Positions 7,996 to 51,451 of a stretch of 64,000 nt of DNA are shown here, piece after piece. A program made the position numbers and the translations under genes. The stretch is taken from NCBI GenBank assembly GCA_035552275.1, contig DASZLR010000141.1:9186-73185 (forward strand), in the 5' to 3' direction. Below the pieces are notes generated by a model that worked only from the letters and a program-made list of their open reading frames with translations, was not told where the DNA came from and searched no databases. The DNA is from Pseudonocardiaceae bacterium (GTDB lineage: Bacteria; Actinomycetota; Actinomycetes; Mycobacteriales; Pseudonocardiaceae). The stretch's first letter is position 1; each line of letters starts with the position of its first letter.

Positions 7996-8020
7996 CCTCC
8001 TCAGGCACGGTCGCGACGGA

Positions 8021-8059
8021 CTCGCCCCCAGGGTTTTTCCAACCCTGGGGGCGAGTTTT
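8021..8059 (+). terminator. Intrinsic terminator after paralog 5
   Basis: 15-bp stem ctcgcccccagggtt (8021-8035) / aaccctgggggcgag (8041-8055), followed by ttttg. Confidence 0.85.
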
Positions 8060-8122
8060 GTCATTCCCCTTTGTCCTTTGCTGACAAGGATGCGCATCCA
8101 GGCGCGACTTCCGTTGCGAGCC

Positions 8123-8151
8123 TTGAGAGTTCCGGTACGGGCGAGTAACTT
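8123..8151 (+). promoter_or_regulatory. Sigma-70-like promoter candidate for paralog 6
   Basis: TTGAGA (8123-8128), 17-nt spacer, TAACTT (8146-8151). Confidence 0.55.
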
Positions 8152-8225
8152 CAGCCGCCGATATGTCTTTAGCGAACGGCAAAAACTAACAACTGATTTT
8201 CGGGGCCAAGGCGTTCGGAGACAAG

Positions 8226-11684: not shown

Positions 11685-11688
11685 TCGA

Positions 11689-20543: not shown

Positions 20544-20604
20544 CCCCGGGCGCCTCCTGATGGGGGATACCCCGCGTAGCCCAACCGGGTGAGGATCGAC
20601 TACT

Positions 20605-20644
20605 GTGTGGCCGGCTTCGGCATCGTCGCCGAAGCCGGCCACAC
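20605..20644 (+). terminator. Strong hairpin after the lipase gene
   Basis: Perfect 17-bp stem gtgtggccggcttcggc / gccgaagccggccacac with a 6-nt loop, 60 nt after the stop. The U-tract is weak. Confidence 0.7.
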
Positions 20645-21179
20645 CTGTCTCGCAGACCCATTCGCGGCGATTTCCGACGCTGTCGAGCGCGCTGTCCGGG
20701 CGCATGTGTGACCTTCCCCGAGCCCGTTCGCGGCCAGTTCGCGCGCCGTTGTGGACGGCCTTCGTGATATTGCGCTGCCTGCATTGTGCGCGGCATTTCC
20801 GTACTCGTAGGTAACTTTCTGAAACTGATCGTTAACGCGGAGTTTCGCCGCCTGTTCAGGATCGGCTCTGGCCTGCGCGAACCCCGCACGGTGGGATGTT
20901 TTGTCACGGGGTTGTCAAGCATTTGGGTGGGACTTGGCACCGTCCAACAGCCGGTCGCCGTTTGGCCTGTTAGGCCGGCCACAAGGCAGCCGGCGGCCGG
21001 CACTCATCCGTGGATAGCCAGCTCAGCCGCTACGCTCTTCCACATACCAACTTCACCCGTCTGGCTTGACTACGAGTGACGGCTTGACATACGGTCACTC
21101 ACCGGATACGTCCAGCCTGCCACAATTCTCCGCCGTTGCCCCGGCAATGCAGCGTGGCACTGTCCCAGCCGGAGGGTTC

Positions 21180-22010
21180 ATGAGAATAGAAGGTAAGTCA
21201 GTTCTCATCACCGGCGCTGGTCATGGAATTGGCGCCGCGCTCGCCCTGCGGCTGGCCGCCGAGAAGCCCCGCGGGATTGTCGTTTCGGACATCGACGAGC
21301 CGGCCGCCAAGGAGGTCGCCGAGCTGGTCTGCCAGCAGGGCGTGCCGGGCGTCGGAGTACGCGCGGACGTGTCATCGGCCGACGAGGTGACCGAACTCAT
21401 CGCCACTACGGAGCGTGAGATCGGCCCGCTGGACGTGATCTGCTCCAACGCCGGGATCTCGACCGCCAAGGGCCTGTTCGCCACCCCCGCCGACTGGGAG
21501 CGCGCCTGGGGCGTGAACGTCGCCGCGCACATCCATCTCGCCCAGGCGGCGCTGCCCGGCATGGTGCGCCGGAAGGAGGGCTACTTCCTGATCACCGCGT
21601 CCGCCGTCGGTCTGCTCGGCCTCCAGGGCGACGCGCCCTATTCGGTGAGCAAGCACGCGGCCGTCGGCTTCGCCGAGTGGCTGGCCTTCACCTACCGGCC
21701 GCGCGGCATCCGGGTCAGCGCGCTCTGCCCGCTGGGCGTCCGCACCGGGCTGCTGATGCCGGCGGTGGAGAGCGGCCACGCCGCCGGCGCCGCGATCGCC
21801 GACGCCGGCCGGATCATGGAACCGGCCGAGGTGGCCGAGGTGGTTGTCCAGGGTTTCGCCGACGAACGGTTCCTGATTCTGCCGCACCCTGAGGTCGCCG
21901 AGATGCACGCACGTAAAGTGGCCGACCCCGACGCCTGGATCGCCGAACAGGCGGCGGCGGGCAGTCGGCACAGTCGGCAGAGCCGGCAGAGTTTGCGCGA
22001 CCGGCGCTGA
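21180..22010 (+). CDS. Short-chain dehydrogenase/reductase (SDR)
   Basis: The ATG at 21180 is preceded by ggaggg. Rossmann motif VLITGAGHGIGAA. Catalytic region YSVSKHAAVG (YxxxK). The track ORF start at 21066 is upstream of the RBS. Confidence 0.85.
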   Translation: MRIEGKSVLITGAGHGIGAALALRLAAEKPRGIVVSDIDEPAAKEVAELVCQQGVPGVGVRADVSSADEVTELIATTEREIGPLDVICSNAGISTAKGLFATPADWERAWGVNVAAHIHLAQAALPGMVRRKEGYFLITASAVGLLGLQGDAPYSVSKHAAVGFAEWLAFTYRPRGIRVSALCPLGVRTGLLMPAVESGHAAGAAIADAGRIMEPAEVAEVVVQGFADERFLILPHPEVAEMHARKVADPDAWIAEQAAAGSRHSRQSRQSLRDRR

Positions 22011-22063
22011 CTCGCGGCCGTGCCCAAGCCGACCAGACCCGAGATCGATCGAAGTGAGGACCG

Positions 22064-25000
22064 ATGAGTGCACGTCCCCAGGGGGCAGACCTGGTCATCG
22101 GCATCACCCCATTGGGTGAGCCGAGTGCCCGGCTCTGCGCGGCCGTGGACGGGGCCGGCGGAATCGGTGTGCTCGATCTCGGCGCGGGCGACCGGCGGGC
22201 CCGCGAGGAGCTCGCGCTGGCGCTGCGCTGGTCGGCCGGCCCGATCGCGGTCCGGGTGGCCCGAGGCTGCGCGCTGCGGCACGCCGACCTGCGCGAGCTG
22301 CTGGGCGCGGACGCGGACCGGATCGACACCGTCGTGCTCGGCTGGCATGCACCCTGGCAGGTACGCGAGCTGCCCGGCCGGGTGCTGGTCGAGGTCACCT
22401 CGCGGGCCGAGGCGGTCCGCGCGGTCCGCGCCGGCGCGCACGGCCTGATCGCCCGGGGCAGCGAGGCCGGCGGCCGGGTCGGCGAGCTCAGCTCGTTCGT
22501 GCTGGCCCAGCACCTGCTCACCGATCCCGAGCTGCGCGAGACGCCGGTGTGGCTGGCCGGCGGCATCGGCCCGCACACCGCCGCCGCCGCGGTGATCGGC
22601 GGAGCCGCCGGGGTCGTGCTGGACACCCAGCTCGCGCTGCTGGCCGAATCCGACCTGCGGCCCGAGGTCGCCGCCGCGCTGGCCGCCAGCGACGGCTCGG
22701 ACACCGCCATCGTGCACGGCCACCGGGTGCTGGCCACCCAGGGCGGTCCGCGCGGGAACGCCGCCGCCGATCTCGCGTCGGTGCCGATGACCGACGTCGA
22801 GATGGCCGACCTGATCGGCGGCCGGGACCTGGCCACCCGGCTGCTGCCGGTCGGCCAGGACGCCTTCCTGGCCACCCGGTTCGCCGAGGAGTTCGGCACC
22901 GCCGCCCGCGCGGTGCGATCGCTGCGCCGGTCGATCACCGACGCGCTGGCCGCCGACGAGCACCCGGTGCTCGCGCCCGGCTCGGCGCTGGCCCGCGCGC
23001 TGGGCACCGACCTGCCGGTCGCGCAGGGGCCGATGACCAGGGTCAGCGACCTGGCCGGCTTCGCGGCGGCCGTCGCCGAGCAGGGGGCACTGCCGTTCGT
23101 CGCGCTCGCGCTGGCCACCGGCGAGCAGACCCGGAAACTCTTGGCGGAGACCCGAGCCACGCTCGGCGCCAGACCATGGGGTGTCGGCGTGCTCGGCTTC
23201 GCGTCCGAGGACATCCGCAAGGCCCAGCTGGAGGTGATCCGCGAGCTGCGGCCCAGCGTCGCGCTCATCGCCGGCGGCAACCCGGCCCAGGCCGCCGCGC
23301 TGGAGTCGGTGGGCATCTCCACCTTCATCCACGTCGCCTCGCCCAACCTGCTGCGCCAGTTCCTGGACGCCGGCGCGCGGAAGTTCGTCTTCGAGGGCGC
23401 CGAATGCGGCGGGCACGTCGGCCCACGGTCCAGCTTCGCGCTGTGGGAGTGCCAGCTGGGCGTGCTCGCCGAGCACCTGGACGACGGCCGGCCCGCCGAC
23501 GGTCTGCAGGTGTTGTTCGCCGGCGGCATCCACGACGAGCGGTCCGCGGCCATGGTCGCGGCCGCCGCCGAGCCGCTGTCCCGGCGTGGCGCGTCGATCG
23601 GCGTGCTGATGGGCACCGGCTACCTGTTCACCGAGGAGGCCGTCGCGCACGGCGCGGTGCAACCGCTGTTCCAGCGGCAGGTGCTGGCCGCCGACGGCAC
23701 CGCGCTGCTGGAGACCGCGCCCGGCCACGCCACCCGCTGCCTGCCCTCGCCGTTCGTGGACACCTTCCAGTCGATCAGCGCTGAACTGGCCGAGCAGGGC
23801 GTGCCGAAGCGCGACGCCTGGGAGAAGCTTGAGCAGCTCAACGTCGGTCGACTGCGCATCGCCAGCAAGGGCATCCGGCGCGAGGGCGCCGAGCTGATCG
23901 AGGTCGGCGAGGACGACCAACTCGCCGAGGGCATGTTCATGGCCGGCCAGGTGGTGGCGCTGCGCTCCCAGGTGACCACCGTGGCCAAGCTGCACGAGGA
24001 CGTCACCAGCGGCGCCGAGCGGTTCCGCGCGGAGCGGATCACCGCGCTGCGGGCCGAACTGGGGCTGACGCGGCCTCAAGATGAAGACCGCGCTGAGCAA
24101 CCAGCCCCGGTGGACGTGGCGATCATCGGCATGGCCTGTGTCTATCCCGGTGCGCCGGATCTGGCCAGCTTCTGGGCCAACATCATCGGCAAGGTGGACT
24201 CGATCACCGAGGTGCCCGCGGACCGCTGGGACACCGACATCTACTACTCCGCCGAGGGCGCCAAGGGCGGCAACAAAGCGGCCGGCGAACGCAGTCGGTC
24301 GAAGTGGGGCGGCTTCCTGGACCAGATCCCGTTCGACGCGCTGCGCTACGGCGTCCCGCCGTCCACGCTGACCGCGATCGAGCCGGTTCAGCTGCTGGCG
24401 CTGGAGATCGCGCACCGCGCGCTGGTCGACTCGGGCTACGCCGATCGCGACGACTTCGACCGGGAGCGGGTCGGCGTGGTGTTCGGCGCCGAGGCCGGCA
24501 GCGATCTGCTCAACACCGGCACCATGCGGATGATGCTGCCGTCCTACCTGGGATCCCTGCCCAAGGAACTGGACGAGCAGCTGCCGAAGGTCACCGAGGA
24601 CACCTTCGCCGGCCAACTGTCCAATGTGATCTCCGGCCGGATCGCCAACCGGCTGGACTTCGGCGGCGCCAGCTACTCCGTCGACGCCGCCTGCGGATCC
24701 TCGCTGGCCGCGCTGGACTCGGCCTGCAAGGACCTGGTCTCCGGGCACGCCGACATGGTCATGTGCGGCGGCGCCGACCTGCACAACGCGGCCAACGACT
24801 TCCTGCTGTTCTCCTCGGTCGGCGCGCTGTCGCCGACCGGCAAGTGCCGGACCTTCGACTCCGCCGCCGACGGCATCGCGCTCGGCGAGGGCGTGGCCTG
24901 CGTGGTGCTCAAGCGGCTGGCCGACGCCGAACGCGACGGCGACCGGATCTACGGCGTCATCGAGGGCGTCGGCAGCGGCAGCGACGGCCGGTCGCTGGGC

Positions 25001-28000
25001 CTCACCGCGCCGCGCCCGGAGGGCCAGCGCCGCGCGTTGGAGCGGGCCTACCAGCGGGCCGGCATCTCGCCGGCCGAGGTCGGGCTGATCGAGGCGCACG
25101 GCACCGGCACCGTCGTCGGCGACCGCACCGAACTGTCCACTTTGGAAGCTGTGTTCGGCGAGGCGGACGTGCCGGCCGGCAGCTGCGTGGTCGGCTCGGT
25201 GAAATCGCAGATCGGACACACCAAGTGCGCCGCCGGGATGGCCGGGCTGATCAAGGCGGCGATGGCCGTGCACACCGGGGTCAAGCCGCCGACGCTGCAC
25301 GTCGACCGGCCCAACCCGGCCTGGCAGGCCGACACCAGCCCGTTCGCCTTCCACAGCGACCCGGCGCCGTGGCTGGTCCCGCCGGCGCAGCGGATCGCCG
25401 GGGTGAGCGCGTTCGGCTTCGGCGGCACCAACTTCCACGCGGTGCTGCGCGGCCACCGGTCCGCCGAGCTGACCCGGCACGGCCTGGCGCAGTGGCCGGT
25501 CGAGCTGTTCACCTTCCGCGGCGTGGACCAGGCGAGCGCCGTCCGCGAGGTGGAGTGGCTGCGCGACCTGACCGCGGTCAACGACGCGCACGGCCGGCCG
25601 TGGACGCTGCGCGACCTGGCCCGCAGCACCGCGCTGCGCGCCGACCGGGGCCGGGCCGCCGTGCGGATCGCCTTGGTGGCCACCGATCTGGACAACCTCG
25701 CCGAGCTGCTGTCCGCCGCGCCGACCAGCACCGGCGACCCGGCTCGGGGCCTGTTCGTGGCAGGCGAATCGGCCGAACCCGGCAAGCTGGCCGTGCTGTT
25801 CCCCGGCCAGGGCAGCCAGAAGCCGGGGATGCTCGCCGAACTGTTCGTCGCCTTCCCGGAGATCCGCCGGCACGCCCGGTCCACTGCGGACCGAGCCGAG
25901 ATCACCGCCGCGATGTTCCCGCCGGCCGTCTTCGACGCCGACGCCCGCCGCGCCGCCGAGGACCGGCTGCGGGACACCGCGATCGCGCAGCCGGCACTGG
26001 GCATCGCCGGTCTCGCGGTGCACCACCTGCTGGGCCGGCTCGGGGTGACGCCGGACCTGGTGGCCGGGCACAGCTACGGCGAGTTGGTCGCGTTGGCCGC
26101 CGCCGGCGCGATCGACCCGGACACCCTGCTGGATCTGAGCGCCGCCCGTGCGAAGTCCATTCTGGACAGTGTGGACAGCGCTGGTGGCGACCCGGGCGCG
26201 ATGGCCGCGGTCGCCGCCGGGCCGGCTGAAGTGGCCCGGATTCTCGCCGAGGCCGGGTTGGCCGACGAAGTCGTGCCGGCCAACCAGAACAGTCCCCGGC
26301 AGACCGTCATCGCCGGCCCGACCGACCGGCTCGACATCGCGCTGGACGCGCTGCGGGCCGCCGGACTGGCCGGCAAGAAACTGCCGGTGGCGTGCGCGTT
26401 CCACAGCCCGGTGGTCGGCGGCGCGGGGGAGCGGTTCGCCGCCGTGCTCGCCGAGCAGGAGATCGCCGCGCCGGAGATTCCGGTGTGGGCCAACCGAACC
26501 GCCGCCGTCTACCGGGCCGAACCGGCCGCCGTGCGGGCCGAACTGGCCGCGCAGATCGGCGCGCCGGTGCGGTTCGTGGACCAGATCGAGGCGATGCACG
26601 CCGACGGCGCCCGGATCTTCCTGGAGGCCGGTCCCGGACGGGTGCTCGGCGGCCTGGTCGACGCCATCCTCGGCGACCGCCCGCACACCACGGTCAGCTG
26701 TGACGGGGGGCTGCGCGGTTTCCTCACCGCCGTCGCCCGGCTCGCCGTGGCCGGAGTCGATCTGCGCACCGGCTGGCTCACCACCGGCCGGGACGCCACC
26801 GACGTCAGCCGCGCCACCCCGTCCCGACGGCCGGGCTGGACCGTCGACGGCCAGACCGTGCGCACCGCGGACGGCAACTACCTGCCCGGCGGTCTCGCGC
26901 CGGCTCGACGTGTGGAGGTGACGATGCCGGGCAGTTCGGTTCCCGCCGGCCAGTCGAGCGGACAGTCCGGGCCGGCGCCGTCCGAGCGCGAGGCGCTGAT
27001 CGCCGAGTACCTGCGGGCCAGCCGTGAGATGGTGGCGGCGCAGCGGGACGTGATGCTCAGCTTCCTCGGCGCGGCGCCCAACCCGGCCGCCCCGGCGCCG
27101 CTGCCGGCGGCGCGGCCCGAACCGCTGCCGACCCAGGTCGCGCCGTCCACACCGGACACCCAGGCCACGCGGCCGACCCCGCCCACACCGGCGCCGACAG
27201 CTCCCGAACCGGCCCGAACACCGACGCCCGATCCCGAACCTGTCGACGCGATGTCGATGGTGGTCGGGCTGATCGCGGAGCGGACCGGCTACCCGGCCGA
27301 GATGATCGAGCCCGATCTCGACCTGGAAGCCGACCTGTCCGTCGACTCGATCAAACGCACCGAGATCGCCGGGGAACTGGCGAGCCGGCTTGGACTGGAC
27401 GGCGCCGACGAGCGGTTCGACGACCTGGTCCGGATGCGCACCACCCAGGCGATGGCCGACTGGATCGACACGCTGGCCGGCGGCGCGCCCGCCGAATCCG
27501 CGGCGCCGGCCGAACCGCCCGGCGAGTCCACTGTGGTCGTTGAACCGGTGCCCGCGCCGGCCGGCGTCGCCGGTGGCCCGGACCTGACCGGCGAGCCGCC
27601 GCAGCGGTTCGTCTGGCGGTTGGCCGAAGCCGACGGCACGCCCGGCGATCCGGCGGTCTTCACCGGCTCCCGGATCGTGCTGGCCGGCGGCGAACCCACC
27701 GTCGTGGAGGCGCTGTCCTCACTGCTGCGCGCGCACGGCGCCCGGGTGACCGCGATCAGCGCGGCCAGCGGGCGCGCCGAGATCGCCGGCCCGGTGGACG
27801 GCCTGGTGTTCCTGGACGCCCTGTGCGCTGCGGACGAACCGGTGCTGCCGGCCGCGTTCGGCCTGTTCCGCGCGGCGCTGCGGCACCAGCCGCGCTGGCT
27901 GCTCGCGGTCGCGCCCAGTACCGACGGCCGGCCCGAGTCGAGCTCGGCGGGGCTGCGCGGGCTGTTCCGCAGCATGGCGCTGGAATATCCGGACTCGATG

Positions 28001-29107
28001 GTCCGGCTGCTGGAGATCGAGGCGGCCACCCAGGCCAACGCGGTCGCGATCGCCGTCATCGGCGAACTGCTCACCGAGGGCCGGCAGCCCGTCATCGTGC
28101 TGGACCGCGACATCCGGCGCGAGTTCACCCTGCAGCGAGCCGGTCTGGGCGCGCTGGCGATGACCGGCGCTGGTCCGGCCGGTGACGGCGCGGCCGAGGC
28201 CGCGGCCGTCGGGCTGGGCCGGGATTCGGTGGTGCTGCTGATCGGCGGCGCCCGCGGCATCACCGCGCGGTTCGCCCGCACCCTCGCCATCGCCAGCGGC
28301 TGCCGGCTGGAACTGGTCGGCCGCACGGCGCCCGGCGTCGAGCCGGAAGCGCCGGTCACCGTGGCGGCCCGGGACCTGCCGGCGCTGCGCGCCGCGCTGG
28401 CCGGCAGCGGACACCAGGGCGGCCCGGCCGCGATCGACCGTGCCGCGAAGGAGATCCTGGCCCGGCGTGAGGTCGCCGAGACACTGGCCGAACTGCGCCG
28501 ACACGGCAGCGAGGCGAACTACCGGGCCGTCGACGTCCGCGACACCCAGGCCATCGGCCAACTCGTCAAACAGGTGCACACCGAGCACGGCCGCATCGAC
28601 GGTGTCGTCTACGCCGCCGGGGTGATCGAGGACAAACTGTTGGCGGAGAAGGACGACGAGTCCTTCGGTCGGGTCTTCGGCACCAAAGTGGATGGTGCGT
28701 CGGCGGTGCTGGCCGAACTGGCCGGGCTGCCCGGCCGGCCCGCGTTCGTGGTGCTGTTCGGCAGTGTCGCGGCGGCGCTGGGCAACCGGGGCCAGACCGA
28801 CTACGCCGCCGCCAACGACGCGCTGGAAACACTGGGCGCGCGGTGGGCGGACCACACCGGCGGCCGGGCGCTGACCGTCCACTGGGGACCCTGGGCGCCC
28901 GCCGACCACCACGGCGGCATGGTGAGCACTGAGCTGGCCCGCGCCTACCACGGCCGGGGCATCGAGCTGATCGACCCGGCTGAGGGCGTCGCCAGCCTGC
29001 TGCGCGAACTGGCCTGGGGCAACGACGAACTGCGCGCGGTCGTGCTCAACGCCGCACTCGCCTGGACCGAAGCGACCGCGGTGGCACCGGAGACGGGAGG
29101 ACGATGA
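22064..29107 (+). CDS. Iterative type I PKS / secondary-lipid synthase-like megasynthase: ER(NMO-like)-ER(NMO/PfaD-like)-KS-AT-ACP-KR
   Basis: 2347 aa.
- **ER region:** two nitronate-monooxygenase/PfaD-type TIM-barrel repeats. Residues about 1-300 contain GSEAGGRVG; residues about 310-640 contain QGPMTRVSD and EGAECGGHVG.
- **KS:** from nt about 24110, with Cys877 in DAACGSS (nt 24692), EAHGTGT and GHTKCAAG.
- **AT:** GHSYGE with Ser1337 (nt 26072), and a CAFH motif.
- **ACP:** LSVDSIKRTEI with Ser1762 (nt 27347), which is PUFA-synthase style.
- **KR:** LLIGGARGITARF, at nt about 28240. Confidence 0.9.
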   Translation: MSARPQGADLVIGITPLGEPSARLCAAVDGAGGIGVLDLGAGDRRAREELALALRWSAGPIAVRVARGCALRHADLRELLGADADRIDTVVLGWHAPWQVRELPGRVLVEVTSRAEAVRAVRAGAHGLIARGSEAGGRVGELSSFVLAQHLLTDPELRETPVWLAGGIGPHTAAAAVIGGAAGVVLDTQLALLAESDLRPEVAAALAASDGSDTAIVHGHRVLATQGGPRGNAAADLASVPMTDVEMADLIGGRDLATRLLPVGQDAFLATRFAEEFGTAARAVRSLRRSITDALAADEHPVLAPGSALARALGTDLPVAQGPMTRVSDLAGFAAAVAEQGALPFVALALATGEQTRKLLAETRATLGARPWGVGVLGFASEDIRKAQLEVIRELRPSVALIAGGNPAQAAALESVGISTFIHVASPNLLRQFLDAGARKFVFEGAECGGHVGPRSSFALWECQLGVLAEHLDDGRPADGLQVLFAGGIHDERSAAMVAAAAEPLSRRGASIGVLMGTGYLFTEEAVAHGAVQPLFQRQVLAADGTALLETAPGHATRCLPSPFVDTFQSISAELAEQGVPKRDAWEKLEQLNVGRLRIASKGIRREGAELIEVGEDDQLAEGMFMAGQVVALRSQVTTVAKLHEDVTSGAERFRAERITALRAELGLTRPQDEDRAEQPAPVDVAIIGMACVYPGAPDLASFWANIIGKVDSITEVPADRWDTDIYYSAEGAKGGNKAAGERSRSKWGGFLDQIPFDALRYGVPPSTLTAIEPVQLLALEIAHRALVDSGYADRDDFDRERVGVVFGAEAGSDLLNTGTMRMMLPSYLGSLPKELDEQLPKVTEDTFAGQLSNVISGRIANRLDFGGASYSVDAACGSSLAALDSACKDLVSGHADMVMCGGADLHNAANDFLLFSSVGALSPTGKCRTFDSAADGIALGEGVACVVLKRLADAERDGDRIYGVIEGVGSGSDGRSLGLTAPRPEGQRRALERAYQRAGISPAEVGLIEAHGTGTVVGDRTELSTLEAVFGEADVPAGSCVVGSVKSQIGHTKCAAGMAGLIKAAMAVHTGVKPPTLHVDRPNPAWQADTSPFAFHSDPAPWLVPPAQRIAGVSAFGFGGTNFHAVLRGHRSAELTRHGLAQWPVELFTFRGVDQASAVREVEWLRDLTAVNDAHGRPWTLRDLARSTALRADRGRAAVRIALVATDLDNLAELLSAAPTSTGDPARGLFVAGESAEPGKLAVLFPGQGSQKPGMLAELFVAFPEIRRHARSTADRAEITAAMFPPAVFDADARRAAEDRLRDTAIAQPALGIAGLAVHHLLGRLGVTPDLVAGHSYGELVALAAAGAIDPDTLLDLSAARAKSILDSVDSAGGDPGAMAAVAAGPAEVARILAEAGLADEVVPANQNSPRQTVIAGPTDRLDIALDALRAAGLAGKKLPVACAFHSPVVGGAGERFAAVLAEQEIAAPEIPVWANRTAAVYRAEPAAVRAELAAQIGAPVRFVDQIEAMHADGARIFLEAGPGRVLGGLVDAILGDRPHTTVSCDGGLRGFLTAVARLAVAGVDLRTGWLTTGRDATDVSRATPSRRPGWTVDGQTVRTADGNYLPGGLAPARRVEVTMPGSSVPAGQSSGQSGPAPSEREALIAEYLRASREMVAAQRDVMLSFLGAAPNPAAPAPLPAARPEPLPTQVAPSTPDTQATRPTPPTPAPTAPEPARTPTPDPEPVDAMSMVVGLIAERTGYPAEMIEPDLDLEADLSVDSIKRTEIAGELASRLGLDGADERFDDLVRMRTTQAMADWIDTLAGGAPAESAAPAEPPGESTVVVEPVPAPAGVAGGPDLTGEPPQRFVWRLAEADGTPGDPAVFTGSRIVLAGGEPTVVEALSSLLRAHGARVTAISAASGRAEIAGPVDGLVFLDALCAADEPVLPAAFGLFRAALRHQPRWLLAVAPSTDGRPESSSAGLRGLFRSMALEYPDSMVRLLEIEAATQANAVAIAVIGELLTEGRQPVIVLDRDIRREFTLQRAGLGALAMTGAGPAGDGAAEAAAVGLGRDSVVLLIGGARGITARFARTLAIASGCRLELVGRTAPGVEPEAPVTVAARDLPALRAALAGSGHQGGPAAIDRAAKEILARREVAETLAELRRHGSEANYRAVDVRDTQAIGQLVKQVHTEHGRIDGVVYAAGVIEDKLLAEKDDESFGRVFGTKVDGASAVLAELAGLPGRPAFVVLFGSVAAALGNRGQTDYAAANDALETLGARWADHTGGRALTVHWGPWAPADHHGGMVSTELARAYHGRGIELIDPAEGVASLLRELAWGNDELRAVVLNAALAWTEATAVAPETGGR

Positions 29108-31986
29108 CCGACATGACTGACCTGTCCCCGCCGTCGGTGCGCGGGGTGGTCGAGCCGGACCGGATGCTGCACCTGTCCGCCCCCGACCGGGCGGGCCTGG
29201 CCGCGCTGCTGGCCGCCCCCGACGAGGAACTGCTCGCCGGATCCCGGTCAGCCGGATCAGACCCGGACGGATCAGCTGGCTGCCGGCTGGGCATCGTCGC
29301 GCCCAACGCCAAACGCCTTGGCCTGGCAAGGAAACTGGTCGCCAGCGGCAAGCCGTGGCGCGGCCGCAACGACATCTGGTTCAGCCCCCGGCCACTGCTG
29401 CGCGAGCCGGGCGCCGGGATCGCGTTCCTGTTTCCCGGCCTGGAAGGCGAGTTCGCGCCGCGGTGCGACGATGTGGCGCGCTGGCTGGACGCGCCCGCGC
29501 CGGCGGCCAACCTGGAGACCGTCGGCCAGCACGCGGAGGGCGTGATCGCGGTCAGCCGCATGCTGGACGAGGCGTTGCGGCGACTGAACATCCGCCCCGC
29601 CGCACTCGCCGGGCACAGCATCGGCGAGTGGACCGCCATGATGGGCGGCGGGATGATGGGCCACACCAGCACGGCCGAGTTCTTCGCCCGAATCGACCTG
29701 GACTCGATGCTGGTGCGCGGTTTCGACTTCGGCGTGCTCGGCTGCCCTGCCGACCGGGTCGCCGACGCGCTGACCCAGCGGCCGGACCTGGTGCTGTCAC
29801 ACGAGAACTCCACCAACCAGACGGTGGTCTGCGGGCCGGTGGACACCGTCGCCGGGTTGGTCGCGGAGTTCCGCGCGCGCGGGGTGATCTGCCAGGTGCT
29901 GCCGTTCCAGTCCGGGTTCCACACCCCGATGCTGCGCCGCAACCTGGACCACTTCGTCACCGAGATCGCCGGCCTGCCGATGGGCCGGGCGGAGATTCCG
30001 GTCTGGTCGGCGACCACCGCCGCGCCGTTCCCCACCGATTCCCAGGACATCCGCGAGCTGTACGTCCGGCACCTGCTGGAGCCGGTGCGTTGGCGTGGCC
30101 TGATGCTGGCCATGCACGAGGCCGGCATCAGGGTGTTCGTGCAGGTCGGGCCCGGCCAGCTCGGCTCACTGGTGGACGACACGCTGCGCGAGCACGAGCA
30201 CCTGACGATCGCCGCCAACTCGGCGCACCGGACCGGCCTGGACCAACTGCGCCGGCTGGCCACCGCCGTCTGGGTGGAGGGCGGCCGGCCGGACTTCGCC
30301 GTGCTGGATTCCGAGTTCGCGCCCCGGCCGGTCGAGGTCGCGAAACCGGCTCCGGCTCCCGTCGCGGAACCGACCCCCGAGCCGATCCAGGCGATCGTGA
30401 ATCCCGATCTGCCGGCGAGCGCGCTGGCGGTGGCCCAACTGGATGGCCTGAGCGAACGGTTCCCGCTCGCCGCCGAGCTGTCCGCGCTGATGCGGGAAAC
30501 GGCCGATGCGGTGAGCGCCGTGCTGCGCGCCAGCGCCGAGAATCCGGAAACCCCGGCCGCGCCCCGGCCAACCCCGCGTCCGGTCGCCGCGCAACCGGAG
30601 CCGGCCGGCCAGGACAGCGTGCTGCACGTGTCCACCACCGCTATGCCCTACCTGGTGGACCACTGCTTCGCCAGGCAGCGGCCGGGCTGGCCGGACGAGA
30701 CGGACCGGCGGCCGGTGGTGCCGGCCACCACGATGATCCAGCACATGATGGACGCGGCCGAACGGGGAGGCCGACGGACGATCGGCCTGGACGATGTGCG
30801 CCTGCACCGGTGGCTGGTGGCCTCGCCGCCGCAGGACGTGGTGGTGCGGGTCGTTCCGCTGGACGCCGACCGGGTGCGGGTCACCCTGGGCGAGCACGCC
30901 GAGGCCGTGGTGCTGCTCGGCCGCGACTACCCGGCGCCGACCGAGGGCGTCTGGCCGAAGTGGCCGGACGAGGGGCCGACCGCGCTGACCGCGCACGACA
31001 TGTACGAGCAGCGGTGGATGTTCCACGGCCCCCAGTTCCAGGCGATCACCCGATCGGTCGCGATCGCCCCGCTCGGCGTCCGCTGCGAGCTGACCGTGCT
31101 GGACGCACCGGGCGCCCTGCTCGACGGCGTGGGCCAGGTGCTCGGCCAGTGGCTGGCGGAACTGCAGCCACACCGGCCGGCCGCGTTCCCGGCTCGGATC
31201 AACCGGATCCGCTTCCACGGACCGCAGCCGCCGACCGGCGCCACCACCGACTGTGCCCTGCGGATCACCGAGGTCCGGCACGAGCTGATCGAAGCCGACA
31301 TGCAGGTGTCGTTGGCCGGCCGGCCGATCGTCTCGGTCAGCGGCTGGCAGGACGTTCGGCTGGACAGCGACCAGCCCGACAGCGCGGTCAACCGGTTCCC
31401 CGAGCTGAGCACGTTGGCGGCGCGGCAGCGCGGCGGCTGGTGGCTGCTCGCGGATCGCCTGCTGGGCCTGGCATCCCGGGAGTTCTACCTGTTCAAGTAC
31501 CTCGCCGCCGAGGAGCGCGCCGAGTACTTCGCCTGCCCGCCGCGGGAACGTCGGCGGTGGCTGATGCGCCGGTTCGTGGTCAAGGACGCCGTGCGCGGCT
31601 GGTTGTGGGACGACGGCGCGGGTCCGCTGTTCCCCGCCGAGATCGCCGTCCGCGAGGACGACGCCGGCCAGTTCGCGGTGTCCGGCCGGTATGGGCTGCT
31701 GCTGCCGCCGCTGTCGGTCGCGGTGGCCGACTGCCAGGAGACGGCGGTCGCCATGGTGCGCCCGGACTCCCCGAGCGATGTGCCCAACCGGATCCACATC
31801 GCCGAGGTGGTGCCCGGGGTGGACGTCAACCGGGCGGCCGTCGCGGCGTTCGATCTCGGGACGACACACCGGCGGAGGGTTCGCGCCGAGTTGGTGAACA
31901 ATCCGGAGGGCCTACCATCTCGGCAATACGTCGTCGCCTGGACAATAGGCGCGACTCAGGAAAAGCAGGAGGAAGGCACACGATGA
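29104..31986 (+). CDS. AT-like / dehydratase / PPTase-like tridomain protein
   Basis: ATGA overlap with the upstream PKS gene.
- **AT-like:** GIAFLFPGLEGEF and LAGHSIGEW, with Ser172 (nt 29617).
- **DH:** PYLVDHCF, with His520 (nt 30661).
- **C-terminal tail (about 180 aa):** LAAEERAEYFACPPRERRRWLMRRFVVKDAVRGWL resembles the N-terminal motif region of Sfp-type PPTases, as fused in enediyne-type PKSE. Canonical GxDxE and WxxKExxK motifs are not clearly visible. Confidence 0.75.
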   Translation: MTDMTDLSPPSVRGVVEPDRMLHLSAPDRAGLAALLAAPDEELLAGSRSAGSDPDGSAGCRLGIVAPNAKRLGLARKLVASGKPWRGRNDIWFSPRPLLREPGAGIAFLFPGLEGEFAPRCDDVARWLDAPAPAANLETVGQHAEGVIAVSRMLDEALRRLNIRPAALAGHSIGEWTAMMGGGMMGHTSTAEFFARIDLDSMLVRGFDFGVLGCPADRVADALTQRPDLVLSHENSTNQTVVCGPVDTVAGLVAEFRARGVICQVLPFQSGFHTPMLRRNLDHFVTEIAGLPMGRAEIPVWSATTAAPFPTDSQDIRELYVRHLLEPVRWRGLMLAMHEAGIRVFVQVGPGQLGSLVDDTLREHEHLTIAANSAHRTGLDQLRRLATAVWVEGGRPDFAVLDSEFAPRPVEVAKPAPAPVAEPTPEPIQAIVNPDLPASALAVAQLDGLSERFPLAAELSALMRETADAVSAVLRASAENPETPAAPRPTPRPVAAQPEPAGQDSVLHVSTTAMPYLVDHCFARQRPGWPDETDRRPVVPATTMIQHMMDAAERGGRRTIGLDDVRLHRWLVASPPQDVVVRVVPLDADRVRVTLGEHAEAVVLLGRDYPAPTEGVWPKWPDEGPTALTAHDMYEQRWMFHGPQFQAITRSVAIAPLGVRCELTVLDAPGALLDGVGQVLGQWLAELQPHRPAAFPARINRIRFHGPQPPTGATTDCALRITEVRHELIEADMQVSLAGRPIVSVSGWQDVRLDSDQPDSAVNRFPELSTLAARQRGGWWLLADRLLGLASREFYLFKYLAAEERAEYFACPPRERRRWLMRRFVVKDAVRGWLWDDGAGPLFPAEIAVREDDAGQFAVSGRYGLLLPPLSVAVADCQETAVAMVRPDSPSDVPNRIHIAEVVPGVDVNRAAVAAFDLGTTHRRRVRAELVNNPEGLPSRQYVVAWTIGATQEKQEEGTR

Positions 31987-32288
31987 CGGTCCCACAGGCG
32001 TCCTCGGAAACAGCGGTGCTCGGGGAGATCCGCACCATTCTCGCCGAAGTGCTGGATCTGTCCGATGTGGATGACATCGAGATCACCGCGGAGATGTCGC
32101 TGATCGACGATCTCGGACTGGAGAGCATCGACCTGGTGAGCATCGGCTCCATGTTGACCGAACGCTACGGCGAGCAGGTCAATCTGGCCTCGTTCCTCGC
32201 CGACCAGGAGATGGACGATGTCATCAAGCTGACCGTTGGCGGATTGGTCGACTTCGTGGCGAGTCGGCTCTCGAACGACCAGGCCTAG
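31983..32288 (+). CDS. Discrete acyl carrier protein
   Basis: 101 aa. ATGA overlap with the upstream gene. Phosphopantetheine site DDLGLESIDLVS. Acidic helical protein. Confidence 0.85.
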   Translation: MTVPQASSETAVLGEIRTILAEVLDLSDVDDIEITAEMSLIDDLGLESIDLVSIGSMLTERYGEQVNLASFLADQEMDDVIKLTVGGLVDFVASRLSNDQA

Positions 32289-32304
32289 GAGCCTCGACGT
32301 GGCA

Positions 32305-33129
32305 ATGATGTCGGTGAACGGCCTGCGCACCCACTACCAGTGGATGCGGGCGAAGAACCCGCGTCCGGGCGGGGCGCCCACGGTAGTGTGCGTGCACGGC
32401 ATCGGCTATGACAGCCTGGCCAGCTTCTATCTGACGCTGGCGTCCCCGCTGTCCGAGGCCGGTTACGACGTGCTCACCTACGATCTGCGCGGGCACGGCC
32501 GCACCGAGCGGCCGGCTACCGGCTACCGGCTGGGCGACTTCGTGGACGATTTCGAGGTGCTGCTCAAGCAGTTGCAGGTCGACGGGCCGATTCACCTGCT
32601 GGGCAACAGCTTCGGCGGCACGCTGGCGTTCAGCTACGCGGTCCGCAACCCCGGCCGGGTGGCCAGCATCGTCGGGATCGAATCCGAGCCGGCGACCGAG
32701 GTGTGGTCGGACAAGATGAGTCGGACCATGGCCAATGTGGTCGAGCTGATGGGCGATGAGGGGTTCCTCGGGTGGGTCACCGAGATCTGGGGCAAGCACC
32801 ACGCCCGGTTGAACAAGGCGGCCGCCGAGGGCGTCGGACAGACGTCGATCGTGGCGGAGCTGGCCGAGGGACCGCTGCTGTCCCAGGCGGAGCTGGACCA
32901 GATCACCTGCCCGGTGCTGTCCATTGTGGGCGATGAGGGGTACCAGCAGGACGATCTGGGCGCGGTCGCCGCGCTGCTGCCGGACTGCCGCACCGAGGTC
33001 ATCGAGGGCCAGGACCATTCGGTGCTGGTCGAGCGGCACCAGACCGTCCGCAAGCTGCTGCTGAGCTGGCTCGACGAGCACGAGGCCGGCAGCGTCGCCG
33101 ACGAACTGCTGGAGGACGGCGCGGCGTGA
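32305..33129 (+). CDS. Alpha/beta hydrolase (possible thioesterase/acyltransferase for product release)
   Basis: VVCVHGIGYDS oxyanion region, nucleophile elbow GNSFGG, and C-terminal GQDHSV (His). An alternative GTG start lies at 32299. Confidence 0.8.
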   Translation: MMSVNGLRTHYQWMRAKNPRPGGAPTVVCVHGIGYDSLASFYLTLASPLSEAGYDVLTYDLRGHGRTERPATGYRLGDFVDDFEVLLKQLQVDGPIHLLGNSFGGTLAFSYAVRNPGRVASIVGIESEPATEVWSDKMSRTMANVVELMGDEGFLGWVTEIWGKHHARLNKAAAEGVGQTSIVAELAEGPLLSQAELDQITCPVLSIVGDEGYQQDDLGAVAALLPDCRTEVIEGQDHSVLVERHQTVRKLLLSWLDEHEAGSVADELLEDGAA

Positions 33130-34262
33130 GACGGTTCCTGTTCGTCGTTCCGCCGCTGGTGGGCCACATCAACCCCGCCGCCAGCGTCGCCGATGAACTG
33201 CGTTCCCGGGGGCACCAGATCGCCTGGGCCGGAGACGAGGGGATCCTGCGGCCGCTGCTGGGAGGTGCGGCGGCCGGTGACACGATCTACTCCTGTGGGC
33301 TGACCGCGCCGGCCGAGCGGCCGGCGCAGCTGCGCGGGTTCGCCGCGCTGAAGTACTTGTGGGAGGACATCTTCACCCCGCTGGCCGAGGCGATGGAGCC
33401 CGGTGTGCGGGCGGCGGTGGCCGAGTTCCGGCCCGACCTGCTGGTGGTGGACCAGCAGGCACTGGCCGGCGCGCTGGTCGCGGAGCGGCTCGGCCTGCCC
33501 TGGGTGACTTCGGCCAGCACCTCGGGCGAGTTCATCGACCCGCTGGAGGGCATGCCGAAGGTGCAGCAGTGGCGACAGGACCAGATGCGCGGACTGCGGG
33601 AGCGGTTCGGTGATCCGGACGCGAAGAGCGATCTCAGGTTCTCGCCGTATCTGGTGTTGGCGTTCACGACTGAGGCGATGGTCGGCGAAACCAGCGGGTT
33701 CGACTTCCCGGTGTCCTTCGTCGGCCCGGTCCGCCGGCCGTCGGCCGGCGGACCGTCGGACCCGTCGTTGGTGTTCGTCAGCCTGGGCACCATGAACACC
33801 GACTCCGGTGCGCGGTTCCTCCGCGAATGTGTGGCGGCGTTGCGGGATCGGCCGAACCTGCGGGCCATTGTCGTGGACCCGGGCGGCGCCATCACCGACG
33901 CTCCGCCGCCACATGTGGTGATGGAGCGGCATGTCGACCAGCTCGCCGTGCTGGCCCGCGCCAGCGCCGTTGTGTGCCATGGTGGCCACAACACCGTCTG
34001 CGAGGCGCTGGCCCGTGGGCTCCCGCTGGTCATCGCGCCGATCCGAGACGACCAGCCGGTGATCGCCGAGCAGGTGAAACAGGCCGGCGCCGGGCTGCGG
34101 CTGCGGTTCGACCGGATCCGCGCGGACAAGATCGGCCAGGCCATCGACACCGTGCTGACCGATCCGGCCTACCGGGTGGCGGCGGGCCAAGTCCAGGAGT
34201 CGTTCCGGTTGGCCGGCGGTGCGCCCGCCGCCGCCGACGAGCTGTCCGCCGTCGCCGGGTAA
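33126..34262 (+). CDS. GT1-family (MGT/UDP-glycosyltransferase) glycosyltransferase
   Basis: The GTG start overlaps the upstream TGA. N-terminal FVVPPLVGHINP. C-terminal nucleotide-sugar motif VVCHGGHNTVCEALARGLPLVIAPIRDDQ. Confidence 0.85.
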   Translation: MRRFLFVVPPLVGHINPAASVADELRSRGHQIAWAGDEGILRPLLGGAAAGDTIYSCGLTAPAERPAQLRGFAALKYLWEDIFTPLAEAMEPGVRAAVAEFRPDLLVVDQQALAGALVAERLGLPWVTSASTSGEFIDPLEGMPKVQQWRQDQMRGLRERFGDPDAKSDLRFSPYLVLAFTTEAMVGETSGFDFPVSFVGPVRRPSAGGPSDPSLVFVSLGTMNTDSGARFLRECVAALRDRPNLRAIVVDPGGAITDAPPPHVVMERHVDQLAVLARASAVVCHGGHNTVCEALARGLPLVIAPIRDDQPVIAEQVKQAGAGLRLRFDRIRADKIGQAIDTVLTDPAYRVAAGQVQESFRLAGGAPAAADELSAVAG

Positions 34263-34286
34263 CAGGTTCGAAGCGGCCGGACAGCC

Positions 34287-34336
34287 GACGATGCCGGCGG
34301 CGGGACACCGGACCGTGCCCCGCCGCCGGCATCGTC
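34287..34336 (+). terminator. Hairpin terminator ending the PKS-GT operon
   Basis: Perfect 18-bp stem gacgatgccggcggcggg (34287-34304) / cccgccgccggcatcgtc (34319-34336), 25 nt after the GT stop. Confidence 0.75.
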
Positions 34337-34697
34337 AGGTACGGCGTGACAATACCTCAGAAAAGCCATCCGATAACGTGGCCGAGAGCGTCAAGAATAG
34401 CATGACCAGCACCCAAGATCATCTGTGATCCTTTCATAGTGCGATTTCTCAGCGGTTAGCTTAACCGTTGGGCGGCAACCTCGACATGGTTGTCGGAGTT
34501 ACTGTATTGCCGGGCTCGTGGAGGAGTCAAGGAAGCGTCGACCACAGATCGAAATTTACCTATCGAGCACATTTATCGGTGGTCTAATTGTCACTCTGAT
34601 GACTAGTTCCATAGCTTGCGTCAGCGCGGATGATCAAGGTCGGGGTCGCACGACGGTGGCTCAGCGAACTCCAAGAAACCATGTATAACCAGGGTTT

Positions 34698-34715: not shown

Positions 34716-34805
34716 GTCAAGCACTCGAGAAAGTGGGTGTTCGCGACGGATTGACCATAGGCTCCAGGTGACACCTTGACATGGTCCCCGAGCTATCCGT
34801 ACGGT

Positions 34806-34829
34806 ATCTCCGACAGATGTGTCGGAGAT
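34806..34829. promoter_or_regulatory. Perfect 10-bp inverted repeat in the same leader
   Basis: atctccgaca gatg tgtcggagat, about 85 nt upstream of the reductase start. It could be an operator or an RNA hairpin. Confidence 0.35.
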
Positions 34830-34913
34830 ATGAAAGGAATATCCGGCCGTGTTACCAAGGTATACGCTGGTGGCGCGGTTAATTGGATATTTCCTGATTT
34901 CCTGATCTGGAGA

Positions 34914-36017
34914 ATGGCGGTGTTGATGAGTCTGGGGCTTGCGCGCACTGGCCGCTGGCTGCTGAATTCGCGGGTGGTCAGCGCGCTGGCCGTGCCGCAC
35001 GGCGTGGACCGGTATCTGGGCCTGGTCAATCCGCTCTGGTCGACGCACGAGGTGCGCGCGGTCGTCGTCGACGTCGCACACCACACCGCGGACAGCGTCA
35101 CCATCACCCTGCGGCCCAACGGCAACTGGGCCGGCGCCCAGGCCGGGCAGTATGTGCGGTTGGCGGTGGAGATCGACGGCGCCCGCCGCACGCGGTGTTT
35201 CTCGGTCGCCAGCTCCGCGCATCGGGCGGACGGTCTGATCGAGATCACCACGAAGGTGAACCCGGCCGGCGCCGTGTCCCGATACCTGAAGCAGCACGCG
35301 CGGCCCGGCCTGCGGATGGTGCTGTCGCCGGCCGAGGGCGAATTCACGCTGCCGGCCAGGGTGCCCGAGCGGCTGCTGTTGATCAGCGGCGGCAGCGGGA
35401 TCACGCCGGTGATGTCCATCCTGCGCACCCTGATCGACCAGCGGTATCCCGGCCGGATCACCTTCCTGCACTATGCCCGCACCCCAGCCGACGTCATCTA
35501 CCGCGCCGAACTCGCCGCGCTGGCCGCGGCGCGCCCGCGGCTCACGCTGGTCAATGTCTACACCCGGTCACCGGGGGCCAGCCGGTTCAGCGGGGAGCGG
35601 TTGGGCCAGGTCGCACCCGACTACGCCAAGGCGCTGACCTACGTCTGTGGCCCGGCCCCGCTGCTGGAAGCGGTGGCGGGGCTGTGGCGCGCGGAAGGGA
35701 TCGCCGACCGGCTGATGATCGAGCGGTTCACCCTCGTGTCACCCGTCGTGGACACCGAGAACGCGGTGGGCACGGTGCGGTTCACCCGCAGCGGTGTCAG
35801 CGCCCGCAACGACGGCCGCACGGTGCTGGAGCAGGCCGAGGCGGCCGGGTTGCGCCCGGAGCACGGCTGTCGGATGGGCATCTGCCACACCTGCGTCGCC
35901 CTGAAGACCATCGGCTCGGTCCGCGACGTGCGCAACGACGTGATCAGCGCCGAGCCCGATGAACGCATCCAGCTCTGCGTCACCGCACCGTGCGGCGATG
36001 TCGAGTTGGACCTCTGA
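34914..36017 (+). CDS. Ferredoxin-NAD(P) reductase-type oxidoreductase with a C-terminal 2Fe-2S domain (desaturase electron donor, Rv3230c-like)
   Basis: FNR-like FAD/NAD region (RCFSVAS, LLISGGSGITP). C-terminal plant-type ferredoxin Cys cluster CRMGICHTCV. GC3 is low upstream of 34914, so the TTG at 34776 in the track was rejected; ATG 34926 is an alternative start. Confidence 0.8.
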   Translation: MAVLMSLGLARTGRWLLNSRVVSALAVPHGVDRYLGLVNPLWSTHEVRAVVVDVAHHTADSVTITLRPNGNWAGAQAGQYVRLAVEIDGARRTRCFSVASSAHRADGLIEITTKVNPAGAVSRYLKQHARPGLRMVLSPAEGEFTLPARVPERLLLISGGSGITPVMSILRTLIDQRYPGRITFLHYARTPADVIYRAELAALAAARPRLTLVNVYTRSPGASRFSGERLGQVAPDYAKALTYVCGPAPLLEAVAGLWRAEGIADRLMIERFTLVSPVVDTENAVGTVRFTRSGVSARNDGRTVLEQAEAAGLRPEHGCRMGICHTCVALKTIGSVRDVRNDVISAEPDERIQLCVTAPCGDVELDL

Positions 36018-36018
36018 C

Positions 36019-37149: not shown

Positions 37150-37164
37150 CCCGAGGGAGGACTC

Positions 37165-40737: not shown

Positions 40738-40833
40738 AAACAGATCCTTCCGCTGCTGACTCGCTGTCGCCCTTCGCCATGTGGACGGCTTTGTCGGGTA
40801 GCCGGAGCGCATTGCTGCGCCCCGGCCCCCTCA

Positions 40834-40868
40834 GAACCGTGCGTGCCACTCGTCGCGGCACACGGCTC
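40834..40868 (-). ncRNA. Group II intron domain V (inner intron)
   Basis: The minus strand reads GAGCCGTGTGCCGCGACGAGTGGCACGCACGGTTC. It has an AGC triad and a basal stem GAGCCGTG/CACGGTTC, and it overlaps the IEP stop codon. Confidence 0.8.
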
Positions 40869-51450: not shown

Positions 51451-51451
51451 C

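Follow-up and report, generated by a model that had tools for sequence, protein, structure and literature searches.

A Compact, Type M-like Iterative Synthase Operon Ending in a Glycosyltransferase Gene in a Pseudonocardiaceae Bacterium

Operon Layout and Boundaries

We analyzed a 64,000-nucleotide stretch of DNA from a Pseudonocardiaceae bacterium (assembly GCA_035552275.1, contig DASZLR010000141.1, positions 9,186 to 73,185 of the forward strand), hereafter the window, which carries an operon built around a large multidomain synthase. Six co-oriented genes on the plus strand (21180-34262) encode a short-chain dehydrogenase/reductase (SDR), a megasynthase, an acyltransferase-dehydratase (AT-DH) protein, a free acyl carrier protein (ACP), an alpha/beta hydrolase, and a GT1 glycosyltransferase (GT). 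A preliminary description of this DNA had proposed that these genes form an operon that ends in a hairpin at 34287-34336. All six genes were found; start and stop codons overlap at three of the junctions (ATGA at 29104, ATGA at 31983, and GTGA at 33126), and the SDR and megasynthase genes are spaced by 53 nt. The operon is therefore confirmed as a translationally coupled unit with a strong hairpin at its end.

This hairpin, the likely operon terminator, has two 22-nt arms on the plus strand (34287-34308 and 34315-34336) that are 95% complementary. Its folding energy is -56.6 kcal/mol, with a z-score of -6.1 relative to shuffled sequences; because it has no T-tract, a simple terminator scan overlooked it. 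An Rfam match to mir-598 over the same region (34287-34339) scored 27.8 bits, whereas the gathering score is 69, and we regard this sub-threshold hit as a chance match to a long stem. At the other end, a 636-bp intergenic gap (20544-21179, plus strand) separates the stop codon of a lipase gene from the SDR start codon and presumably holds the promoter or regulatory region. A promoter scan of this gap returned no sigma-70 consensus site, and an Rfam scan of it returned no family. The lipase gene ends in its own hairpin (20605-20644).

The G+C content is 72-75% in the cluster compared to 64-69% in the flanks. The G+C content at third codon positions (GC3) is uniform across the window (0.87-0.92 in the cluster, 0.85-0.97 in the flanks), so the difference in overall G+C reflects amino acid composition. 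Horizontal transfer was considered on compositional grounds and dismissed, because GC3 is equal in cluster and flanks; the composition gives no sign of recent transfer. A carboxyltransferase encoded in the flank shares 75-77% identity with Amycolatopsis proteins, which assigns the host to Pseudonocardiaceae.

Domains of the Megasynthase

The megasynthase (22064-29107, plus strand; 2347 aa) has more than 100 full-length homologues with 56-65% identity, in Streptomyces, Actinokineospora, Kutzneria, Amycolatopsis, Allokutzneria, Crossiella, Micromonospora, and other genera. Pfam identified NMO/enoyl reductase (ER), ketosynthase (KS), AT, PP-binding, and ketoreductase (KR) domains, and the best NCBIfam model, for the KS-AT region, was PfaA (TIGR02813, 868 bits, below its cutoff of 1010). 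The order ER-ER-KS-AT-ACP-KR given in the preliminary description was recovered with both model collections; the first of the two ER units, however, is a pseudo-ER in which the catalytic His is replaced by Arg.

The N-terminal 680 aa of the protein comprise two FabK-like units (aa 18-217 and aa 309-655). The first, ER_a (22064-22933, plus strand; ARGSEAGGRVGE), is a TIM-barrel unit without the catalytic His, and the second, ER_b (22976-24043, plus strand), carries the invariant motif FEGxECGGHVGP. In the homologue alignment, ER_a reads ARGxEAGGRVGE, and Arg is the family consensus at the position where ER_b has the invariant His of GGHVG; we conclude that a pseudo-ER precedes a true ER, since the catalytic His is retained in the second unit alone. 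The ER had also been described as PfaD-style, an assignment that the data do not support. FabK was the only NCBIfam model matched by either unit (46.6 bits for ER_a and 91.9 bits for ER_b). In a Foldseek search with an AlphaFold2 (AF2) model of the ER region (pLDDT 89, pTM 0.91), FabK was at the top (E 4e-19, TMt 0.86-0.88), whereas PfaD appeared at rank 36 with a TMt of 0.54. The model matches and the structural ranking thus both assign the ER to the FabK type rather than the PfaD type.

The remaining domains all lie on the plus strand. KS1 (24113-25447; Pfam ketoacyl-synt and Ketoacyl-synt_C) has the Cys-His-His triad, as read from the motifs DAACGSS, EAHGTGT, and IGHTK. AT1 (25784-26695; Pfam Acyl_transf_1; FabD model TIGR00128, 170.7 bits) is of the malonyl type, as judged from FPGQGSQ, GHSYG, an Arg 25 residues past the Ser, and AFHS. 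The single integrated ACP (27260-27463; Pfam PP-binding, aa 1733-1800; LEADLSVDSIKRTEI) carries the polyunsaturated fatty acid (PUFA) synthase-style motif LSVDSIKRTEI that had been noted earlier, with one occurrence at aa 1758-1768. The KR (28229-28897; Pfam KR, E 6e-32) contains GGARGIT and YAAAN. The catalytic motifs of KS1, AT1, ACP, and KR are invariant across 18-30 homologues.

The Second Synthase Protein and the Free ACP

The second protein (29104-31986, plus strand; 960 aa) consists, according to Pfam and alignments with relatives, of a KS-AT linker remnant, an acyltransferase (AT2), a DH of the polyketide synthase (PKS) type, and a degenerate phosphopantetheinyl transferase (PPTase). 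It is 43-50% identical to full KS-AT-DH-PPTase homologues. Its N-terminus (about residues 15-100) aligns with the KS-AT linker of longer relatives that contain a second KS (KS2); because the first 100 or so residues match this linker, we conclude that the protein has lost its KS.

In AT2 (29401-30303, plus strand) the invariant alignment columns include FPGLEGEF, GHSIGE, and GFHTPM, that is, a Ser-His acyltransferase without the malonyl-binding signature. FPGLEGEF occupies the place of GQGSQ in malonyl ATs, the FabD model gives just 71 bits, and the equivalent of FabD Arg117, which we take to be the malonyl-binding residue, is not conserved. These features point to a putative non-malonyl, PfaB-like acyltransferase. 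PfaB and a related thraustochytrid AT-like domain act in the transfer or release of long chains.

The DH (30616-31383, plus strand) had a weak match to Pfam PKS_DH_N, and its homologues match PS-DH. It contains the motifs LVDHCF..P, FHGPQF, and LLDGVGQ, so that the His, GPxF, and DxxxQ elements of a double-hotdog DH are present. With the AF2 model of this domain (pLDDT 91.5) as query, the top Foldseek matches were the DH domains of MlnB, MAS-like proteins, and CurJ (E about 1e-14, TMt 0.70-0.75).

The C-terminal tail (31426-31983, plus strand) had been called PPTase-like. Its homology to the genuine PPTase domain of Streptomyces relatives is confirmed by the alignment with the intact PPTase of locus L003 (Pfam ACPS), but the motifs of the tail are destroyed: GIDVEE, the Mg-binding motif of Sfp-type PPTases, is replaced by IHIAEV, and a deletion of about 70 aa within the domain has removed WxxKEAxxK. 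The AF2 model still shows a well-folded region, and the tail is predicted to be a folded, catalytically dead, non-functional PPTase remnant. With the PPTase in cis dead, a PPTase must act in trans, and the ACPs would be activated by an enzyme encoded elsewhere.

The free ACP (31983-32288, plus strand; 101 aa, motif DDLGLESID) was recognized by NCBIfam ACP models and occupies the same position in related loci. The two synthase proteins together fit the earlier view of an iterative synthase with one KS and a full reductive set: a KS with Cys-His-His, a malonyl AT, a KR, a PKS-type DH, and a FabK-type ER.

The Family and the Loss of the Second Ketosynthase

The operon had been presented as an orphan that could not be assigned to a characterized pathway. 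We likewise found no such pathway, but the operon belongs to a catalogued family, within which it is a reduced, Type M-like member. A scan of one genome per species with two AT2-specific peptide patterns detected at least 576 related loci, in Streptomyces and Pseudonocardiales. For a closer survey we took 83 loci (labeled L001 etc.), namely three that were fetched separately and the best 80 of the family scan. The gene order megasynthase, [KS2]-AT2-DH-PPTase protein, ACP, hydrolase, GT is found in every sufficiently long locus among the 83, from Streptomyces, Pseudonocardiales, and others.

The homologues of the second protein occur in three forms: KS-AT-DH-PPTase proteins of about 1500 aa, KS-AT-DH proteins with a degenerate PPTase of about 1350 aa, and AT-DH proteins with a degenerate PPTase of about 900 aa, the last being the form in the window. 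KS2 is present in 68 of the 83 loci and absent from 15 loci and the window. The degenerate PPTase occurs in all of the KS2-less loci, and no PPTase motif was detected in any of them (the 15 fetched loci and the window). A methyltransferase gene follows the GT gene in most of the Streptomyces loci that contain KS2. Of the 15 KS2-less loci, 12 have an SDR homologue just upstream of the megasynthase gene, compared with none of the 68 loci that contain KS2; the SDR is an accessory gene specific to the KS2-less subclade.

A neighbor-joining tree of the AT2-DH region places the KS2-less loci in one clade, whose sister group consists of the KS2-containing Pseudonocardiales loci with a degenerate PPTase (L002, L009, and L011). 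From this topology, KS2 was lost once, and the PPTase was already dead beforehand. The window's subclade is, as far as the sequences can tell, a monophyletic group of Pseudonocardiales in which KS2 was lost, the PPTase was already degenerate, and an SDR was gained; the nearest relatives of the window are L004, from a Pseudonocardiaceae metagenome-assembled genome, and L001. The absence of a second KS is a loss specific to this lineage and not a trait of the whole family. This changes the meaning of an earlier remark that the operon has no pair of KS and chain length factor (CLF): the remark is true for the window, but the absence is due to the loss of KS2 in the subclade, and the KS2 of the longer relatives, with Cys-His-His present, looks like an active KS and not like a CLF.

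Both subtypes occur in Kutzneria, where L002 (Kutzneria albida) contains KS2 and a degenerate PPTase, and L013 (Kutzneria viridogrisea) lacks KS2 and bears the SDR. The two subtypes coexist in one genome, since K. albida itself yields both forms of the second protein.

The loss of KS2 and the destruction of the PPTase motifs could mean that the operon is a decaying remnant that no longer forms a product, and the PPTase remnant does diverge faster than the rest (48% identity to L004, against 66-79% elsewhere). All open reading frames (ORFs) are, however, intact and coupled, their GC3 matches that of neighboring genes, and every remaining catalytic motif is conserved in the 16 KS2-less members, which come from several genera. 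The subclade is also old and monophyletic and gained a conserved SDR, and PPTases that act in trans are common in actinomycetes (Ikeda group, 2018). We consider decay extremely unlikely; the monophyly of the subclade and its conserved catalytic motifs argue that it is functional.

Comparison with Known Synthases

Shulse and Allen (2011, Table S1) describe a Type M synthase composed of ER-KS-MAT-ACP2-KR, KS-AT-PPTase, and ACP proteins (MAT, malonyl acyltransferase) in Actinosynnema mirum, three Frankia, Renibacterium salmoninarum, and S. avermitilis (NP_828536-8, SAV_7360-7362). They list Type M as uncharacterized, give the same domain order for Types N and O, and record no PKS-type DH, hydrolase, or GT for Type M. 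The window has in common with Type M an ER-KS-MAT-ACP(n)-KR protein, an AT-containing second protein, a free ACP gene downstream, and an actinomycete host; the PPTase motifs of Type M are PKS-type rather than PUFA-type, as in the window's family. The window differs from Type M in that it has no KS2, a dead PPTase, one integrated ACP instead of two, and an extra SDR. It holds no KS-AT-PPTase protein as such, its second protein being without a KS and with a degenerate PPTase; because this homologous protein retains the KS-AT linker, we interpret the window as a derived variant of Type M and not as a canonical one. The 68 fetched loci with KS2 show the Type M architecture plus the hydrolase and GT, and an architecture identical to Type M is present in more than 60 Streptomyces loci homologous to the window. 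For SAV_7361 and SACE_2343, two PKSs that bear a PPTase, the Ikeda group wrote in 2018 that the products "have not been identified".

Among Types M, N, O, and P, only Type P has a known product; in it, ArsA and ArsD of Azotobacter vinelandii make C22-C26 acyl chains for the alkylresorcinol and alkylpyrone lipids of cysts. ArsA has the ER-KS-MAT-ACP-KR order and, like the window's megasynthase, just one ACP. It works iteratively to make saturated very-long chains, and in both the KS and the PPTase trees it groups with Type M in the half that holds Types M-T. The Ars chain, however, is passed to two type III PKSs, and the host is a proteobacterium, whereas the window has a free ACP, a hydrolase, and a GT; no type III PKS was found among the annotated ORFs of the 64-kb window. 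By architecture, ArsA appears to be the closest characterized relative.

The cyanobacterial heterocyst glycolipid (Hgl, Type F) synthases resemble, in outline, the system proposed for the window: a Pfa-like synthase works iteratively on a long chain, partly oxygenated, that is glycosylated afterward. Hgl systems have a dedicated glycosyltransferase for their lipid; the conserved GT1 of the window is a candidate for such a role. antiSMASH labels Hgl-like clusters "hglE-KS". Hgl has KS and CLF-AT proteins, separate ER and KR, and an ACP-thioesterase (TE)/reductase release protein, none of which is present in the window, where the ER is fused and FabK-like and the DH is of the PKS type. The likeness to the Pfa PUFA synthases consists of PfaA as the top model for the KS-AT region and the DSIKR-type ACP motif; PfaB and AT2 are both non-malonyl Ser-His acyltransferases beside a KS-like domain, which the window has lost. 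The window differs from Pfa in its FabK-like rather than PfaD-like ER, and it lacks tandem ACPs, a KS-CLF, and FabA-type DH/isomerase domains. The earlier conclusion that the operon is not a canonical Pfa or Hgl system therefore stands, given the single ACP and the absence of a FabA-type DH, a CLF-AT protein, and an ACP-TE/reductase protein. The "EPA" cluster of S. coelicolor (SCO0124-0127) was examined as a possible match and set aside, because it belongs to Type L and has a different architecture, with a separate ER and KS-CLF-AT-DH2.

A synthase resembling the enediyne PKSs (PKSEs) or other polyene synthases, in which the ER is inactive or seldom used, would instead make a conjugated polyene. 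The KS-AT-ACP-KR-DH-PPTase order and the integrated PPTase of SgcE, CalE8, and DynE8 are superficially similar to the window, and the DSIKR-type ACP motif and the PKS-type DH would fit such an enzyme as well. PKSEs, however, are single polypeptides without an ER or a second AT. In the window, the domains are distributed over two proteins that also contain two ER-like units and another AT, and throughout the family the catalytic motif of ER_b does not vary. The annotated ORFs of the window include neither a hot-dog thioesterase nor an enediyne cassette gene. The top hidden Markov model for the KS-AT region was PfaA and not a PKSE-like model, and no enediyne PKS was among the best 60 solved-structure matches to this region. 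These differences uphold the earlier statement that the operon does not encode a PKSE, and we see hardly any chance that its product is a polyene of this kind.

SDR, Hydrolase, and Glycosyltransferase

The SDR gene (21180-22010, plus strand; 276 aa; Pfam adh_short, E 6.5e-40) starts with an ATG at 21180 that is preceded by a GGAGGG ribosome-binding site, and an identical 276-aa product is already a recorded gene call. The alpha/beta hydrolase (about 32299-33129, plus strand; Pfam Abhydrolase_1 and Thioesterase) is a candidate enzyme for chain release or transfer; the Ser of GNSFGG and His240 are invariant in an alignment of 16 loci. PDB sequence searches returned only generic relatives for the hydrolase and for the SDR.

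The GT (33126-34262, plus strand) is a GT1 glycosyltransferase of the MGT/UDP-glucosyltransferase type (TIGR01426, 166 bits; cutoff 260). Its best PDB sequence matches are the UDP-glucosyltransferases YjiC and OleD/OleI. The hydrolase and GT had been counted as part of the operon, and both do follow the synthase genes in every related locus of sufficient length, with the GT as the last core gene. The GT could also have no part in biosynthesis and serve as a self-resistance or xenobiotic-inactivating enzyme of the MGT type, with a free fatty acid or lipid as the product of the pathway. Its best family match is indeed to the macrolide glycosyltransferases (TIGR01426 and the OleI/Mgt models), and its nearest solved relatives, YjiC and OleD, are promiscuous. 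On the other hand, its start codon overlaps the stop codon of the hydrolase gene (GTGA at 33126), its position is constant in every complete locus across two orders, and its score is under the MGT cutoff and far under the cutoffs of resistance enzymes. A non-biosynthetic GT thus seems very improbable to us.

Proposed Pathway

We favor, with moderate confidence, the interpretation that the operon encodes an iterative type I fatty acid synthase/PKS of a reduced Type M class, which makes a long acyl chain that is then released and glycosylated. KS1, the malonyl-specific AT1, and the integrated ACP would extend the chain in repeated, largely fully reducing cycles with the KR, ER_b, and the trans-acting DH. 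AT2 and the free ACP may move a long acyl group, either by handing off the finished chain or by loading a pre-made fatty-acyl starter, and the hydrolase may release or transfer the chain. The SDR would adjust one oxygen function. The GT would attach a hexose, for which UDP-glucose is the probable donor. The data show the genes and their intact catalytic motifs, the DH and ER folds, the structure of the operon, and the synteny across the family, whereas the chain length, the degree of reduction, the sugar, the site to which it is attached, and the functions given to AT2, the free ACP, the hydrolase, and the SDR are all inferred. A glycolipid is a reasonable prediction for the product. To name glucolipsins or cycloviracins, which are macrocyclic glycolipids, as the products would be pure speculation.

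Several observations weigh against this interpretation. A set of one ACP and one KS, accompanied by a dead PPTase, is unusually minimal. The hydrolase and SDR are generic enzymes, so their roles are guesses, and the GT, which scores below the MGT family cutoff, has an acceptor that is not predictable from sequence. The likeness of the window to the named Type M examples and to ArsA is one of architecture and taxonomy. The literature and libraries that were searched contained no compound linked to this synthase family, and we found no product, expression, or mutant data for any of its members. A 2026 paper still lists few secondary lipids as known, namely heterocyst glycolipids, phenolic lipids, zeamines, fabclavines, megapolipeptins, and chitinimines.

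Linkage to an Mce Locus

An Mce lipid-transport locus, which is not part of the operon, lies upstream of it (9676-19065, plus strand) and encodes, according to Pfam, an MceG ATPase, two MlaE permeases, and six MlaD/Mce proteins. An orthologous Mce locus is located 3-6 kb downstream of the GT gene in seven other KS2-less loci, while in the window it is on the opposite side of the cluster. In those seven loci the MceG proteins are 69-75% and the permeases 69-78% identical to those of the window, and the Mce genes come after an acyl-CoA synthetase (ACS) gene and a DUF6801 gene. The orthologous Mce locus and a secretory lipase gene are linked to the cluster in 8 of the 14 KS2-less loci with enough flanking sequence; no Mce genes were found near the synthase cluster in any of the 68 loci with KS2.

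DUF6801 genes are also present in the window, where six tandem paralogues (8-9257, plus strand) are located directly 5' of the Mce locus, and they flank the synthase cluster in L006, L008, L012, L013, L024, and L047. The secretory lipase gene of the window (PF03583; 19203-20543, plus strand) is directly upstream of the operon, and a homologue has the same position in L015, L022, and L047.

The Mce linkage allows two readings: the Mce system traffics the product of the pathway, or the pathway elongates an imported fatty acid that has been activated by an ACS or a fatty acyl-AMP ligase (FAAL). In the second reading the chain is not made de novo. The Mce system and lipase would supply a fatty acid, an ACS or FAAL would activate it, the free ACP and AT2 would load it, and KS1 would extend it for a few cycles. 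This reading agrees with the linked Mce and lipase genes and with an AT2 that has no malonyl-binding residues. A gene for a 699-aa AMP-binding ACS follows the GT gene in L006, L008, L012, L015, L017, L022, and L024, and in A. mirum the first gene of the Type M cluster is an "ACS-ACP" gene (Shulse and Allen, 2011). The window itself encodes a FadD32-like FAAL (37165-38958), preceded by a reductase-desaturase pair. This FAAL, however, is located beyond the hairpin and shows no useful homology to the relatives' ACS. None of the 68 loci with KS2 has ACS, FAAL, or Mce genes, yet these loci retain AT2 and the free ACP. PKSs that are primed by a FAAL usually require no AT for loading, and the ArsA-type enzyme is described as making C22-C26 chains by itself. 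We therefore regard the elongation of a pre-made fatty acid as unlikely, though it is the strongest of the alternatives considered.

The first reading, joined to the proposed pathway, leads to a more specific suggestion: the KS2-less subclade might make an undescribed actinomycete glycolipid, a glycoside of a long or very-long (hydroxy)acyl chain, that is trafficked or recycled by a dedicated Mce system. In this full form we think the suggestion decidedly doubtful.

Other Genes in the Window

Just past the hairpin, three genes (34776-38958, plus strand) encode an FNR-like FAD/NAD/2Fe-2S reductase, a membrane fatty-acid desaturase, and the FadD32-like FAAL. They possibly form a second lipid-modifying unit, and they are not conserved beside the cluster in the relatives. 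Two adjacent genes for group II intron reverse transcriptase/maturases follow (39283-42669, minus strand), one of them at least 90% identical to a Lentzea protein; together with a DUF222 gene (43804-44919) they mark a patch of mobile elements.

Farther downstream (49846-60164, minus strand) are genes for a FAAL, a 2372-aa PKS, and an acyl-CoA carboxyltransferase, arranged in the order fadD32-pks13-accD4. The best model for the PKS was Pks13 (1361 bits, below the cutoff of 2100), and the protein has additional DH and KR domains. The region encodes a Pks13-like condensing system in a non-mycolate family.

The genes for an ABC-2 exporter pair adjoin the GT gene in L001, L005, L007, and L016, and one homologue is present in L047. 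A pair in the window (61753-63800, plus strand) is 65% and 61% identical to the GT-adjacent pair of L001; it lies 27 kb from the GT gene, beyond the mobile-element patch.

Significance

The Type M-like operon is a known and widespread kind, catalogued in 2011 and still without a product. It occurs in hundreds of Streptomyces and Pseudonocardiales species, for none of which a product was given in the papers of 2011 and 2018. What is new here is the minimal architecture, the dead PPTase, the pseudo-ER, the kinship of the ER to FabK, the single origin of the KS2-less, SDR-bearing subclade, and the linkage to Mce genes. The window reveals no new kind of machinery. It represents the minimal working set of the family, with one KS, one integrated ACP, no active PPTase in cis, a hydrolase-GT pair, and an extra SDR.

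The small size of the operon (13 kb) suits heterologous expression, and cultured carriers of the family exist, among them Actinokineospora sp. HUAS TT18, Kutzneria albida, and S. avermitilis. The Mce linkage offers a testable hint as to the destination of the product. If the suggested Mce-trafficked glycolipid were to prove correct, the Type M synthases, orphans since 2011, would have a first product, and the Mce system would be the first such transporter to be genetically coupled to an endogenous biosynthetic lipid pathway.

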